The notes below the pieces were generated by a model. It had not been told where the DNA came from, searched no databases, and worked only from the letters and a program-made list of their open reading frames with translations. From a virus (lineage: Duplodnaviria; Caudoviricetes): DNA of 25,687 bases. The stretch spans positions 1-25,687 of the IMG/VR virus record IMGVR_UViG_3300030098_001936, one strand, 5' to 3'. Numbering within the stretch: the stretch's first letter is position 1; each line of letters begins with the position of its first letter. This document shows, one piece after another, positions 12,196 to 25,687 of the stretch. A program made the position numbers and the translations under genes.

Positions 12196-12218
12196 ATTCC
12201 TCTTTCTTGGAGATAACG

Positions 12219-12734
12219 ATGGGAACTATTAACTTTTACACAAAGTTTGATTACACGGATGCAGCGGGCAACCTGTACTCAGACGGCAGCACTTCTGTTG
12301 CCCACACAATAACTGTTGCTTCTGATGAAATCTTTGACCGGACGTATGCGATTGGCCCTACGGCTACCTTGACCACACTTCTGAACGATGATCTTATTTC
12401 TGACTTTGATTTTCTGTGGATCGAATCAGATCAGCAGGCTGAGATTCAATTGGTTTGCAACGAGTTGGGTGTCCATAACACTGATGCTGCTGATGATAGT
12501 GATGACACGGCTTTGGCAAACGGTTGGGTTGTAAAACTTGAGGCTGGCATTCCGTTCTGTTTGCACAACGATGACAGTAGAAACCGTGGAGATGTCGGTG
12601 GAAACATTGGCACTAACTACCTTAGTGAACAAAACTCTTGGGAATCTTCGTGGAACGTAGATGTTATTGACCGGATTGAGTATTACCACACGACTGGTTC
12701 CGCAGCAAAAGTTCGTGTCATTGCAATTACTTAA
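12219..12734 (+). CDS. Hypothetical virion protein, paralog A
   Basis: ATG 12219 behind ggag. Shares SDFDFLWIESD, EIQL.CNE, VKL.AGIPF.L.NDDSRN and IDRIE with the next ORF. Confidence 0.8.
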   Translation: MGTINFYTKFDYTDAAGNLYSDGSTSVAHTITVASDEIFDRTYAIGPTATLTTLLNDDLISDFDFLWIESDQQAEIQLVCNELGVHNTDAADDSDDTALANGWVVKLEAGIPFCLHNDDSRNRGDVGGNIGTNYLSEQNSWESSWNVDVIDRIEYYHTTGSAAKVRVIAIT

Positions 12735-12745
12735 TAGGATTTAAG

Positions 12746-13243
12746 ATGGCAACACTAAACCTGACCACACACTTTACAGTTTCGCTTGCAGACAGTGATG
12801 ATTCTCGAACAATCACTGGTGGAAGCACAACTGCTTCTGATTCAATCACAATTACCCATTACTACGATCAAAGGTTTTTGATTGCGAACACAACTTTAGT
12901 TGAGTTGTGGAGTGATAGCACTGCAACGTCGGACTTTGATTTCTTGTGGATTGAATCTGACGCTGCTGTCGAGATTCAATTGCTTTGTAACGAAGGTGGC
13001 GACCTTTCTAATAACAACATTGAAAATGGCTTTTGCGTCAAACTCACTGCTGGCATCCCATTCATCTTGTCAAACGACGATTCCCGAAACATGGGAAACA
13101 TGAATGGCACTTTTAATGAAAGTAATTACCAGTCAGAGATTGACACTTGGGAAACCAACTGGGTGGCTGACACCATTGACCGCATCGAGTGCTACAACGG
13201 AAGTGGCGGCGATGCTAATGTTCGTATCTTTGCGGCGACATAA
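12746..13243 (+). CDS. Hypothetical virion protein, paralog B
   Basis: Tandem paralog of 12219..12734, with agga SD. Confidence 0.8.
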   Translation: MATLNLTTHFTVSLADSDDSRTITGGSTTASDSITITHYYDQRFLIANTTLVELWSDSTATSDFDFLWIESDAAVEIQLLCNEGGDLSNNNIENGFCVKLTAGIPFILSNDDSRNMGNMNGTFNESNYQSEIDTWETNWVADTIDRIECYNGSGGDANVRIFAAT

Positions 13244-21317: not shown

Positions 21318-24300
21318 ATGCCTGAAACGCCAACGCCTCAAAACCAACAGGGTTTTCAGTCTCTTGAGTTGGGACTGCTTGATTACCACAGGAAAAACCT
21401 AAGAGACGGCACTTACTTTGCAGATGAAGATGGCTATGTCACAACTGTTCGCACTATGGGCGTGACGGTTGATGACAAGTATTACATGATTCCTAGTTAT
21501 GTCGGCGGGAAAATACTGGAACCCGAAGAGGCTGTTAAAAATGCTGAGTCTGTTGGCTGGGAAAACTTCCCGTCGTACTCAACTATGGAAGAGTTTGAAG
21601 ATGCCGACAGGCGATTGCATACGCAAATCGAAGATGACTTTGAAGACTGGCAAAAGTCTCAAGGAGAGAAGGCGTGGTCCCCTGAAGTACGCGCTGCCGC
21701 TGGTGAACTAAGAGAGCAAAAAAGAAGGGAACTTGTACAACAACTTGAAGAAGGTAGAGGAAAACGTGTTCCGGGTCAGCCCGGATACGGCGCTCCGTTT
21801 GTAGTCCGTGAACAAGAAACAGAGCGTTTGCAAGAATTGCAAGAACAACTTGACTCACTTGATTTGTACGAAGAAGAACAATACGACAGGCTTTCTCTTG
21901 AAAGAGAAAAGGTTGACTTTGAAGTTCAGGCTCAATATGACAGAATTAAAATGGGTCAAGAGCCGTACACGAAAGAAGAACTGGAAGGATTGTTTGAGGT
22001 GTACGTCAGGGACAGGGACGTACTAAAACTAAACATCGTTCGTGAAAACATGGGCATGCCTGCGCTTTCTCCTGAAGCGTTCAAACCTGCTGGCTTTGGC
22101 GAGTCATTTGCCGAAGAGATTTACTGGCCCATTATGGGAACAATTGATCAGGCAGATTACATTATTGACCTGTATGAACGGGCTGATCGTATTGAAAGAG
22201 GCGAGGGTCTGCCGCAAGATGAGAAGCGTCTACTTGAGCATTGGGCAACGCTTAAAGAACTTGAGATTAGGGGCCGCACTTGGATGGGTGAAGCGGGTGC
22301 TATTTCTGGCATGTCGCTTCCCTTCATGATGGAAATTGTGGCAACGAGAGGGGTGACAGCGGGAGCCAAAAAAGCCTTGACTAAGGCAGGCTTTAAGATG
22401 GGAGACAAGGTCATTGCCAGAGCGCTTGGCAAAGTCATCAACAAAGCAACTAAGGGCGGTGCTGAGAATCTTGTCAAGCACCTTGCAAAGAAAAGGTCTG
22501 GCGCTCTGGCTCTTAAGGGGCTGGCAATTTCTGGTGACGTAGCGTCAGCCGAAGCCGTTCGTTCGTCTGTGCTTGGGTTTGGTACAGGCAAGATTTATGC
22601 CGACGCTATCCGTGAAGTGTTGATGGTTGACGTTGACATGGATCAAATGGGCGAGATCCAATTGTACGTTGATGCTCCTACTACTATTGGTGGCGAGGCT
22701 ATTCTTAGGTCGTGGGCCAAGAACTACGTTGAGTACGTTTCAGAAAGAACTGGTGCAATACTTACCAAAGGTGTTGTACCCGGTGTCAAGAAAGGCCTTA
22801 GCAAAATTACGCCACGCCAGATTGATGAGGCGGTTAAGGGTCTTAAGACTGCTGTTGTTACTAGGTGGATGAAGAACAACCCAAGGGCGAAACTGTCTGA
22901 GTTTGGTAAGTTTCTTGCCCAGAAGGGTGGGTATCACGGCGTACTTGGCGAGGACTTTGAAGAGTGGGTCGGTTCAGGTATGCACTACGGCATCGACGCG
23001 GCCACCATGGAAGATGCCGAGTTGTACATCCCAAGTCTTGACGAGTGGCTTCAGCGTCTCGTTGGCTTTGGTGTTCCTATGGGCGGGCAAGTAGCAATTG
23101 GTGCTGCTGTAACACCGTTGGCACGCAGGTCTGCTTCCGGTGCAATCGATGCAGCAAGAACTGAGGGTCGGCTTAGGGGTGTACGCAGGCAGCAGGAGGG
23201 GGCGCTTAGGCAGGAAGAGCAGCCTCCAATTATCTCAGAGTTGCAAGAAGAAGTTGAGGGTATCGGAGGGGTAGTAGAGGGTGAGGCTGTTACTGTTGCC
23301 AGAATCAGAAACAAAGATGGGGTGATTGTCGGTGAGGTTGCGGCTAGTTCTGAGAAGGCTGAAGAGGTAGAAGAACACATCAAGACGCGGCTGGCTCCTG
23401 AAGAGTACGAAGAGTTGGAAGTGTCCATGATTCCGTTGGCTGAGATTCAGGCGGAGTTGGAGGAGCAGGCCGAAACTGTAGAAACAGAGGCTGCCGCACT
23501 TGCACCGCGTGGTGACATGGCGCAGACGGAGGCTGCTGAGGCTGCCGAGGCTTTAGACGCAGAGATTAAGAATGAACTGGATGCTGTTGCAGAAACCGCT
23601 AGTAATAAGTTTGATGATGCTCACACCATCACGCCGACCCCGGTAGAAGAACAAGATCGTGGTGTCCAACTTATCTCACAGGCAATGGGCAGGGCAGGGA
23701 TCCGCGTTGTTCCGGTTGACATTACTGCGGAAAGCGGCAGCCCTAAGATTGGTGGCGCTCAGTTGCCGTCCAGACCAGACGTTGTGTTTGTTCAGGACAC
23801 CAGCAAGATTACTGACCCGAAAGAAAAACGCAAGGCGTTCGTCCGTAACTTCCTTGGCATTCTTGCTCATGAGGCTACTCACACTCTGGAGTCCATGAAC
23901 CCGGCGTTGTACAACTACCTGATTCTCCGGGGCAGGAAAGAAACTGAGCGGGGTCTTAGAAGTTACGCTGGTACTGAGGCTGGTGAGGTTCTTGATTCTA
24001 ACTACATGTCAGAACTTTCAGAAGGTCTGGCTACTGCTATCCAGAAACTGATTGCTTCTGGTCGTATATCTTTGGACCCCACCGAAAAGAATATGTGGAA
24101 CCAGTTGAAGGACTGGCTTAATGGTTGGGTGAACCGCACTGGCCTGCGTGGCTCGTTTGCTATGGAGACTCAGAAGTTTGTTGACAGGCTTCTTGCAGGC
24201 GAGAACATTGCAGAGATAGAACTGCCCGGCCAGAGAAAAGAACTTGAGCGTGCGCGTGCCCGTGGCTTGGCACCGAGGGCTGGGGCTGCATTGCCTGAAG

Positions 24301-25687
24301 TTACGGAGGAGGACATTGCCGCCGAGCCTGACTTGTCTGTGAGGTTTGCGCCTGCTGAGGGGCAGCCCCCCCGTCGCATTAAAATTGGGCGTACGGCACC
24401 GAGCATTGAAATCCCAGAAGATTTTTCTATTGAACTTGAAGCCGATGAAATCACAGAGGGCCAAAAGAACTTCATGTCCGAGTTCTTTGATGCCACCTTT
24501 GCTGCTCCTTCCATGCTTTCGGTACAAGGGAGAGTGTTCTTAGACCCTAGCGTAAGCGGCGAAGCGTTGGAAAGGTTTGCGACAGAGCAGACACTTCCTC
24601 AAGACTGGGTCCATATTGTTGCAAAGGCTCATGTGTATACACGCGGCAATAATTCTATCTATCTTGGGTCTATTGCTACTCAGGTTCGTGGGCAAGGGTA
24701 CGGGACTTATGCTCTGAAGATCCTCACCGATCTTGCAGACAAGCACGGAGTTTCTATCGAAGGTTCTGTCGATAAGTTTGGGAAAGAGGGACTATCCCAA
24801 ACCAAACTTCGAGCGTGGTACAGGCGGCATGGTTTTGTTGTTGGCAAAACAGACACAATGGTCTACAAGCCTAAGCCTGAGGCCGAGGCCGCACCCCGCT
24901 TCGCACCCGCACCTGCTGTCAACACGCCTGAGTTCCGCCGCTGGTTCAAGGACTCGAAGGTGGTGGATGAACAGGGCAACCCGTTGGTTGTGTACCACGG
25001 AACAAAGAAAGAGTTTTCTGAGTTCAAGACACGGTTTCCTGACATTCCAATTATTTTCTTTACAACCGATCCAAAGTTTGCTTCTGATTGGATGGAAGGT
25101 ACGGGGGGAGTTCGCCAGCCGTCAGATGAGGTTCTTGCTAAATCTAAAGAAATGCGAGCGTATGAAAATGCCTTGTATGAAGAGTTAGGAATCAGAAATA
25201 TTGACACTAGCACGGACGCGGGACTGCAAGAGTTCAACCAGATGCAGCAAGACGTGCGCAATCGTATGACCGAACGGTACGGCTTTGATTCGGCAATCGA
25301 GTATGAGAGTTTGGCTGATACTCGAATCATGCCAGTCTACTTGTCAGTGCAAAACATGTTTGAGCCTCAAGAACATTGGGATCAAATAAAGTTTCCTGAA
25401 CCTACCCCCAATATAATGCGCGCCGCTAAACGCGGCGCGTGGCCGGTGTATGAAACAAAAGAAGTGATAGAACAAATTAGGGAGTTGGGTTATGACGGCA
25501 TTCGGTTGTCTGAATCTACCCTTGAAGGTTCGCCCCTTGATACTATAGCAGTCTTCGACCCCACCCAAGTCAAGTCAGCCACCGGCAACGTAGGCACGTT
25601 CGATCCCGCTCAAGCAGACATCCGCTTCGCACCCGCACCTGCGACAAGGGAAGTCACATGGTCCGATAGCGAGCAGCAACAGTTTGA
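21318..25687 (+). CDS. Giant polyvalent virion protein (3'-truncated): HExxH metallopeptidase, GNAT and ADP-ribosyltransferase-like domains
   Basis: Hand translation from ATG 21318 has no stop to the window end (1456 full codons). HEATH at 23868-23882, RGQGYG at 24687-24704, YHGT at 24993-25004, then LGYDGI and AVFDPTQVKSATGNVGTFD. Confidence 0.92.
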   Translation, partial: MPETPTPQNQQGFQSLELGLLDYHRKNLRDGTYFADEDGYVTTVRTMGVTVDDKYYMIPSYVGGKILEPEEAVKNAESVGWENFPSYSTMEEFEDADRRLHTQIEDDFEDWQKSQGEKAWSPEVRAAAGELREQKRRELVQQLEEGRGKRVPGQPGYGAPFVVREQETERLQELQEQLDSLDLYEEEQYDRLSLEREKVDFEVQAQYDRIKMGQEPYTKEELEGLFEVYVRDRDVLKLNIVRENMGMPALSPEAFKPAGFGESFAEEIYWPIMGTIDQADYIIDLYERADRIERGEGLPQDEKRLLEHWATLKELEIRGRTWMGEAGAISGMSLPFMMEIVATRGVTAGAKKALTKAGFKMGDKVIARALGKVINKATKGGAENLVKHLAKKRSGALALKGLAISGDVASAEAVRSSVLGFGTGKIYADAIREVLMVDVDMDQMGEIQLYVDAPTTIGGEAILRSWAKNYVEYVSERTGAILTKGVVPGVKKGLSKITPRQIDEAVKGLKTAVVTRWMKNNPRAKLSEFGKFLAQKGGYHGVLGEDFEEWVGSGMHYGIDAATMEDAELYIPSLDEWLQRLVGFGVPMGGQVAIGAAVTPLARRSASGAIDAARTEGRLRGVRRQQEGALRQEEQPPIISELQEEVEGIGGVVEGEAVTVARIRNKDGVIVGEVAASSEKAEEVEEHIKTRLAPEEYEELEVSMIPLAEIQAELEEQAETVETEAAALAPRGDMAQTEAAEAAEALDAEIKNELDAVAETASNKFDDAHTITPTPVEEQDRGVQLISQAMGRAGIRVVPVDITAESGSPKIGGAQLPSRPDVVFVQDTSKITDPKEKRKAFVRNFLGILAHEATHTLESMNPALYNYLILRGRKETERGLRSYAGTEAGEVLDSNYMSELSEGLATAIQKLIASGRISLDPTEKNMWNQLKDWLNGWVNRTGLRGSFAMETQKFVDRLLAGENIAEIELPGQRKELERARARGLAPRAGAALPEVTEEDIAAEPDLSVRFAPAEGQPPRRIKIGRTAPSIEIPEDFSIELEADEITEGQKNFMSEFFDATFAAPSMLSVQGRVFLDPSVSGEALERFATEQTLPQDWVHIVAKAHVYTRGNNSIYLGSIATQVRGQGYGTYALKILTDLADKHGVSIEGSVDKFGKEGLSQTKLRAWYRRHGFVVGKTDTMVYKPKPEAEAAPRFAPAPAVNTPEFRRWFKDSKVVDEQGNPLVVYHGTKKEFSEFKTRFPDIPIIFFTTDPKFASDWMEGTGGVRQPSDEVLAKSKEMRAYENALYEELGIRNIDTSTDAGLQEFNQMQQDVRNRMTERYGFDSAIEYESLADTRIMPVYLSVQNMFEPQEHWDQIKFPEPTPNIMRAAKRGAWPVYETKEVIEQIRELGYDGIRLSESTLEGSPLDTIAVFDPTQVKSATGNVGTFDPAQADIRFAPAPATREVTWSDSEQQQF
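24896..24916 (+). repeat. 21-bp direct repeat, copy 1 (ccgcttcgcacccgcacctgc)
   Basis: Identical to 25622-25642; encodes the RFAPAPA linker. Confidence 0.95.
25622..25642 (+). repeat. 21-bp direct repeat, copy 2
   Basis: Identical to 24896-24916; offset 726 bp = 242 codons, in frame. Confidence 0.95.

Follow-up and report, generated by a model that had tools for sequence, protein, structure and literature searches.

Gene, modules, and repeat

The window, by which we mean the whole stretch of 25,687 bases analyzed here, belongs to a phage record that is 62% complete, and its contig stops inside a polyvalent protein gene. The sequencing runs that contain the stretch are annotated as marine or seawater metagenomes, with one exception. 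Upstream of the gene, on the same strand, lie genes for the small and large terminase subunits, the portal, the major head protein, and an SU10-type adaptor. The encoded protein consists, in order, of a core with an HExxH motif, a GNAT-like module, an ART-PolyVal module, and the opening 14 residues of a further module. Thirteen distinct proteins were compared, namely that of the window, those of loci L001 and L023, and ten from two protein searches; P0003, a fragment of L001, and P0013, which is distant and matches at the C-terminus only, were left out. The features referred to below are as follows.

21318..25685, plus strand: polyvalent protein gene, 1,456 aa in the contig, with the reading frame running off its end; final gene of the virion module
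21318..24257, plus strand: constant N-terminal core, about 1,000 residues, from protein comparison with relatives
23868..23882, plus strand: HEATH (HExxH) zincin-type motif at residue 851, kept in relatives
24243..24286, plus strand: end-of-core block (ERARAR...), second exchange point
24342..24356, plus strand: third linker peptide, RFAPA; 0/5 codons match the repeat
24342..24896, plus strand: GNAT-like module of 185 aa; sub-threshold Pfam match to Acetyltransf_7 (E 0.001)
24879..24914, plus strand: extended joint EAEAAPRFAPAP, 36 bp identical to L023, whose core is 33% identical
24896..24916, plus strand: copy 1 of the 21-bp repeat, encoding RFAPAPA; exact match
24897..25622, plus strand: ART-PolyVal module, 242 aa from linker to linker; Pfam PF18760, 77 bits, cut-off 31.2
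24897..25004, plus strand: linker and ART start up to YHG, 96% DNA identity to L001; left joint of the nested swap
25001..25559, plus strand: variable ART interior; five interiors in six ART-bearing proteins, 35-45% mutual identity
25560..25642, plus strand: ART end and linker, 84% identical to L001 at the DNA level; joint on the right of the nested swap
25622..25642, plus strand: copy 2 of the 21-bp repeat, encoding RFAPAPA; exact match
25644..25685, plus strand: start of the next module (TREVTWSD...), which is 139 aa long in P0009

Polyvalent proteins of phages and conjugative elements have mosaic architectures that have been explained by domain accretion (Iyer et al. 2017, PMC5512222). The window protein resembles the proteins described in that paper in its size, its disparate domains (ART-PolyVal, GNAT-like, HExxH), its virion-gene neighbors, its terminase-portal phage, and its mosaic architecture, and on the features that can be tested, disparate domains and a late virion gene neighborhood, we classify it as a phage polyvalent protein. 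Judging from the position of its gene and from the account in PMC5512222, this giant protein is probably packaged in the virion and injected. A zincin-like MPTase domain was not matched in the window core by Pfam, PHROG, or NCBIfam, and the HEATH motif is the part that relatives retain. By eye, the N-terminal region at 21378-21650 (LLDYHRKNL...TMGVTVDDKYYMIPSYVGGK) shows a likeness to N-terminal stretches of L003 and L023, with no family match. Elsewhere in the window, two adjoining genes of similar size (12207-12734 and 12746-13243) have a 32-bp stretch in common at 84% (12399 and 12929); they match no family and, from this resemblance, are likely tandem paralogues of the head-tail region.

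The 21-mer CCGCTTCGCACCCGCACCTGC occurs at 24896 and at 25622, a spacing of 726 bp or 242 codons, and both copies are in the frame of the ORF that runs from 21318 to the end. The preliminary description had read these as identical, in-frame direct repeats bounding an ART domain, and this holds, an ART-PolyVal match lying between the two exact copies. The 21-mer is the sole exact repeat of at least 16 bp in the window, hence the longest, and no further copy within 5 mismatches was found on either strand of the window. Given the codon usage of the gene, the identity of all six RFAPAP codons between the copies has a probability of 6.6e-4, and a 21-bp run was reached by 1 of 20,000 synonymous shuffles. 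In L001, an independent record, the repeat (20 bp) flanks ART as well.

Module orders among relatives and within samples

The closest full-length relative of the window protein is P0009, with 2,982 aa. The cores of the 13 proteins fall into three groups that are about 30-37% identical to one another: that of the window is 100% identical to P0009, 95% to P0008, 87% to P0002, and 69% to L001, about 30-37% identical to a group that we call the core-B proteins, and 33% to L023. A fixed domain order in relatives had been named in the preliminary description as evidence against exchange of domains; cut at the linker (by manual reading of the alignments), the 13 proteins have 11 module orders. The variable modules are internal and are followed by about 1,100 aa of constant C-terminal sequence.

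Individual pairs illustrate gain, loss, and replacement. P0006 and P0004 have cores that are 96.7% identical, the same downstream module start, and the same residues flanking the junction; in P0006 two linkers enclose an ART of 242 residues, and in P0004 a single linker stands without ART. The exact loss of 242 codons that recombination between the copies was predicted to leave is thus found at the protein level. The ART of P0006 is identical to that of the window at 239/242 residues (98.8%), on cores that are 37% identical. Conversely, P0009 equals the window over the core (1008/1008) and over GNAT (185/185), a module confined to these two among the 13 proteins, and its ART is 37% identical, with 357 extra residues between the ART end and the TREVT module. 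P0012, on the third core, has one module 97% identical to that of L023 (cores 31%) and another 92% identical to that of L001. A different domain between the linkers, which was likewise to be looked for, is present in relatives, with other modules in the same slot in P0005, P0012, and L023.

Over all protein pairs, 32 of 61 identity-block ends lie at most 8 residues from a linker, against 5.0 expected, a count whose ends are not independent and which is no formal test, because each event is counted from both partners; the linker pattern used for it missed the P0008 copies RFASA and RFAAS. The other 29 lie away from linkers, with clusters at the core end (ERAR) and at the YHG motif of ART. At the core end, contigs branch off at two positions, 24257 and 24286, and the 44 bases of this block recur in a core-B phage with 1 difference. 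As an observation on the adjoining DNA, window 24243-24356 appears as a mosaic of a block in common with core-B phages, an L001-like segment, and a codon-diverged linker.

At YHG, the DNA of the window and L001 is 73% identical in the core vs 96% over the 108 bp of linker and ART start. On these alignments, ART has a nested second level, in which the interior is exchanged between ART's own conserved ends, and two ART interiors coexist in the metagenome run X1, both between the same conserved ends. Members of the ART-PolyVal (Tox-ART-HYD2-like) family are expected to have His in strand 1, Tyr in strand 2, and Asp in strand 5. Among the five alleles, YHG is present in 5/5, and the window allele has IFFT where the other four have YFT or YFA; the window allele carries F at the position of the strand-2 Y of the other alleles.

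The same turnover is visible in assemblies of single samples. Contigs of four runs from four studies (X1, X5, X9, and X14, out of 20 runs listed for the stretch) were mapped on 22700-25687, with one rough depth figure per contig. In X1, core and GNAT stand at about 18x, the window ART interior at 5.8x, and the other interior at 14.3x, and a single contig (record 7) holds two repeat copies 1,071 bp apart, matching the 357 codons of P0009. X5 has the same module order as X1. In X9, a phage that differs from the window at 19 of 1,558 core bases leaves it at 24257, rejoins for 36 bases at the linker, and then enters another module; a core-B contig of the same run ends at the linker, with continuations into ART or directly into the module that follows ART in L001. 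X14 has the window ART without GNAT before it and with another module behind. Where the insert is known, at three joints, the reading frame is preserved. Alternative module forms coexist within one sample. We had considered whether the joints of X9 and X14 that run from 24286 to 24877/8 were GNAT deletions of the window phage, and rejected this because their upstream letters match core-B proteins, which points to other phages sharing both blocks.

All of these sequences come from metagenome assemblies, and assemblers could in principle have joined different phages via the repeat, so that the module orders would be chimeras. The window itself offers one candidate: its junction behind 25642, from ART to TREVT, is bridged by no contig among those listed in 4/4 runs, where other modules follow ART, and the TREVT module is preceded by another module in P0009, X1, and X5 (357 codons in P0009 and X1). 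However, the run contigs break at overlaps of 30 letters, more than the 21 bp of the repeat, single contigs cross the repeat (X1 record 7, X9 record 19, X14 record 8), the P0004 order recurs in 6 member sequences and in X9, and the P0009 order recurs in X1 and X5. That the repeat is an assembly artefact, as the preliminary description had allowed for, is ruled out by its flanking of ART in L001 and by the two copies in X1 record 7, and we regard chimeric module orders as extremely unlikely. As for the single ART-to-TREVT junction, the window's bases at 25604 and 25607 are those of an X9 contig and not those of the dominant X1/X5 form, consistent with a real minor haplotype; we lean toward a real minor deletion form, and a misjoin seems to us somewhat short of an even chance. 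The main conclusion is independent of whether this junction is real.

One linker allele beside unrelated modules

The comparison of linker DNA covers three genes (window, L001, and L023), the other ten relatives having been compared as protein. Between the window and L023, 12/12 linker codons are shared, vs 44% of the codons of identical core residues; for the window and L001, the figures are 32/36 and 60%. One long linker allele accounts for this: of the 12 linkers in the three genes, 7 agree with it at every comparable codon or differ at a single one, and outside the allele the unrelated modules that flank it have no similarity to each other. L023 was first found by a 17-base pattern, and six of its shared codons lie outside that pattern (p about 0.008); both L001 and L023 were also recovered by peptide-seeded searches that are blind to linker codons. 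In the L001 gene, four of the five longest-ranking repeats sit at linkers. Among viral contigs, a 17-mer scan returned 26 loci (2 on the L001 contig, 1 in L023, 22 in short frames, and 1 in L024, a 942-aa frame) and a degenerate DIRFAPAP scan 5 (the L001 contig, the distant polyvalent gene L039, and 3 others). A metagenome scan gave only copies of L001 and L023 among the matches listed, and a 23-mer scan of genome contigs gave 0 matches. A search with the core of the single protein found 0 relatives, and one with alignment A1 found L001 only.

Codon sharing does not extend to linkers in general. Over all pairs within a gene, it is near chance in the window (6/18 vs 5.6 expected) and modestly high in L001 (33/75 vs 23.0) and L023 (8/17 vs 5.3). 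The short RFAP copies share 0/5, 0/5, and 0/4 codons with the allele, and some of them still bound modules. General codon fixing of all linkers was rejected on this mismatch of the short copies and on the near-chance all-pairs counts. One patch of the core is also conserved at the DNA level between the window and L023 (8/9 codons). Four distant polyvalent genes with linker peptides of their own have no excess of codon sharing, and a fifth has too few pairs. The genes of L003, L004, L034, and L039, with boundary peptides RYSK, RSADR-like, RFALNP, and RFAPAP, are distant polyvalent genes of this kind, and such boundary peptides without codon fixation suggest a general signal at the protein level. 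Another distant polyvalent gene, L045:9773-13360, has six ARF[QM]P linkers, two of which share an exact in-frame 21-bp repeat that the other four lack, and it carries a homologue, 28% identical, of one module of this group. Taken at the sequence level, one long linker allele is fixed in DNA, and the RFAP peptide is wider and older than the allele. The peptide itself probably has a protein-level job, as a spacer or a processing site.

The synonymous-site conservation of the linker that the preliminary description proposed to look for is therefore found in one long allele fixed across three genes, and not in the short copies or the distant genes. Its proposal that the linker DNA doubles as a recombination joint stands insofar as the same DNA occurs in phages with cores about 33% identical (36/36 bases). 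It does not follow that the joint DNA is itself under selection, because the 21-mer is the core of longer blocks of 36-108 bp and just one long allele is codon-fixed.

An alternative hypothesis is that the identical DNA is merely a footprint. The linker would be kept for its peptide, exchange would take place at any homology or by illegitimate joining, selection would retain only those products whose domains are whole, and the identical DNA would be a passive trace of recent transfer or duplication of modules with the linker at their ends. The confinement of codon fixation to one long allele is consistent with this, as are the peptide linkers of distant polyvalent genes without codon fixation and the breakpoints at the core end and at the YHG motif. 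However, the same allele borders unrelated modules at those 7 of 12 linkers, with no similarity beyond it, and the window and L023 have the 36 joint bases in common and neither the preceding nor the following module. Run contigs whose cores or downstream modules differ also match this extended joint, over 36-41 bp. An allele that lies beside unrelated modules makes passive descent from one module insufficient without repeated exchange at the linker, and we consider the footprint alone improbable.

A probable route of exchange, and known systems

We conclude, with fair confidence, that the repeat encodes a linker peptide between enzyme modules, and that relatives differ by in-frame gain, loss, or replacement of modules there, likely because the linker DNA that they have in common is a point of homologous crossover for predicted RecE/Rad52-type recombination by the phages themselves. 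The recombination events we infer from their products, of which the repeat, the module boundaries, the presence/absence pairs, the near-identical modules on three divergent cores, and the common linker allele are seen directly.

The preliminary description had likened the arrangement to an integron. Integrons are arrays of exchangeable units separated by a repeated element, with an integrase and an attC hairpin. The locus shares with them the exchangeable units separated by a repeated element in an array, and differs in having no integrase, no attC-like hairpin, and units that are not separate genes. More broadly, a phage or host recombinase could recognize the 21-mer and excise or insert modules; the one fixed sequence with its internal CGCACC repeats and the precision of the products would suit such an enzyme. 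Yet matches to tyrosine (PF00589) or serine (PF00239) recombinases were found in none of 3 phage records (that of the window and two relatives, one of them 99% complete), with profile controls positive in 14 and 12 of 14 genomes, respectively. At the linker there is no stable hairpin or dyad, four folds being no better than shuffles (z +2.05, +2.40, -0.21, and +0.28), and Rfam gave no relevant match, only one chance snoRNA match. Crossovers are not confined to one site either, given the block ends away from linkers (29/61) at the core end and at YHG, and swaps occur at codon-diverged linkers and at non-linker blocks. We therefore rejected the integron-like label, and we hold site-specific recombination of any kind to be very unlikely.

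A homologous route has candidate genes in relatives. In G001 (99% complete), three genes adjoin one another: a DUF3799/exonuclease VIII gene, one of 266 residues, and a DUF669 gene that matches SSB weakly. The 266-residue gene has no Pfam match and is labeled "exonuclease" by PHROGs; the Atlas places it with Rad52/Rad22 clusters (score 0.95, Pfam share 11-35%), one structure row passes the bar, and a PDB sequence search with the protein gave nothing relevant. From this language-model and predicted-structure search, it is likely Rad52-like, and PHROG 7838, which carries the "exonuclease" label, may be a family of annealing proteins. G002 has a homologue of this gene, and the window's record, at 62% completeness, is without it. 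The row of exonuclease VIII-like, Rad52-like, and DUF669 genes in the near-complete relative lies at L042:4829-6925 (minus strand), and the same relative has a separate ArdC-N and MPTase-PolyVal anti-restriction gene (L042:9184-10143, minus strand). On these model-based assignments, the RecE-like and Rad52-like genes of a near-complete relative are the likely engine of exchange.

Rad52-like recombinases are described as dominating exchange over short, diverged sequences, and the minimum homology for Red-beta is quoted as about 30 bp (De Paepe et al. 2014, PMC3945230). The 21-mer falls below this length and the blocks of 36-108 bp shared between phages lie above it, so our preferred reading is exchange between phages at those blocks, with deletion between the two copies within one genome as a rarer event. 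We picture the process as follows. Phages of this group would meet in one host cell, where the RecE-like exonuclease and the Rad52-like annealing protein would pair strands at the blocks that the phages have in common. These blocks measure 36-41 bp at the linker, 44 bp at the core end, and as much as 108 bp where the ART start is included. Since all linker copies are in one frame, every product would be an intact chain. Each exchange would spread the same linker allele and so make the next one easier, which would account for both the fixed allele and the drifted copies. Conflict with host defenses would keep the modules turning over. A more far-reaching version, in which a community-wide, recombinase-free cassette system has selection on the silent positions of the joint, phages about 30% alike trade injected modules, ART undergoes a nested swap, and the joint peptide is cut by the phage metallopeptidase, appears to us rather doubtful.

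In the main text of Iyer et al. (PMC5512222), the word "linker" occurs 0 times, and cassette recombination is considered in one case only, that of separate small ORFs in Verrucomicrobium; unlike the domain-accretion account of that paper, the locus points to linker-to-linker exchange of modules. The PeSLs of T4-type phages are non-coding elements of a promoter and a stem-loop between whole genes (Arbiol et al. 2010, PMC2839356). Common to these cassettes, to Botstein's linker model, and to our locus are short conserved elements that flank exchangeable modules and serve as sites of homologous recombination, with no dedicated recombinase identified in the description of the PeSLs; in contrast, the joint here is coding, in frame, inside one ORF, and without a hairpin, and the units are domains. 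Go-back joints, such as excised mini-circles of the PeSL kind would give, do not occur among the run contigs listed, although rare forms drop out of contigs. CdiA-CT/Rhs systems of bacterial chromosomes have a single C-terminal slot, which receives new domains from orphan modules accompanied by immunity genes (Poole et al. 2011, PMC3150448). The VENN-type joint of CdiA, a conserved peptide-coding block proposed as an in-frame crossover for change of the effector domain, is similar to the linker, whereas in our proteins several slots lie internally, flanked by constant sequence toward both termini, and neither orphan nor immunity genes were seen. The Rad52-like mosaicism of PMC3945230, where an exonuclease and an annealing protein favor exchange across short diverged homologies flanking near-identical mosaics, is alike in its proposed machinery; there, however, the mosaics are of gene scale and in temperate phages of E. 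coli, and here a coding joint is repeated within one gene. Joints at the DNA level in polyvalent genes are not described in the literature that we searched, which lay mostly outside subscription journals.

Variable domain orders of polyvalent proteins are known, and their origin has been left open; the locus points to a concrete route. It would mean that a coding joint is common to divergent phages, that module turnover is fast enough for polymorphism within one seawater sample, and that Botstein's linker model becomes testable at the scale of domains inside one ORF. It also calls for caution with metagenome data, since any one contig of such a gene represents just one form among many that coexist. 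Finally, the linkers give exact boundaries for several unnamed modules, which are candidate counter-defense enzymes. One unnamed module, of 311-319 residues, is always preceded by a segment of 43-46 residues between two linkers in P0007, P0008, P0009, P0010, and P0011, and the pair co-moves.
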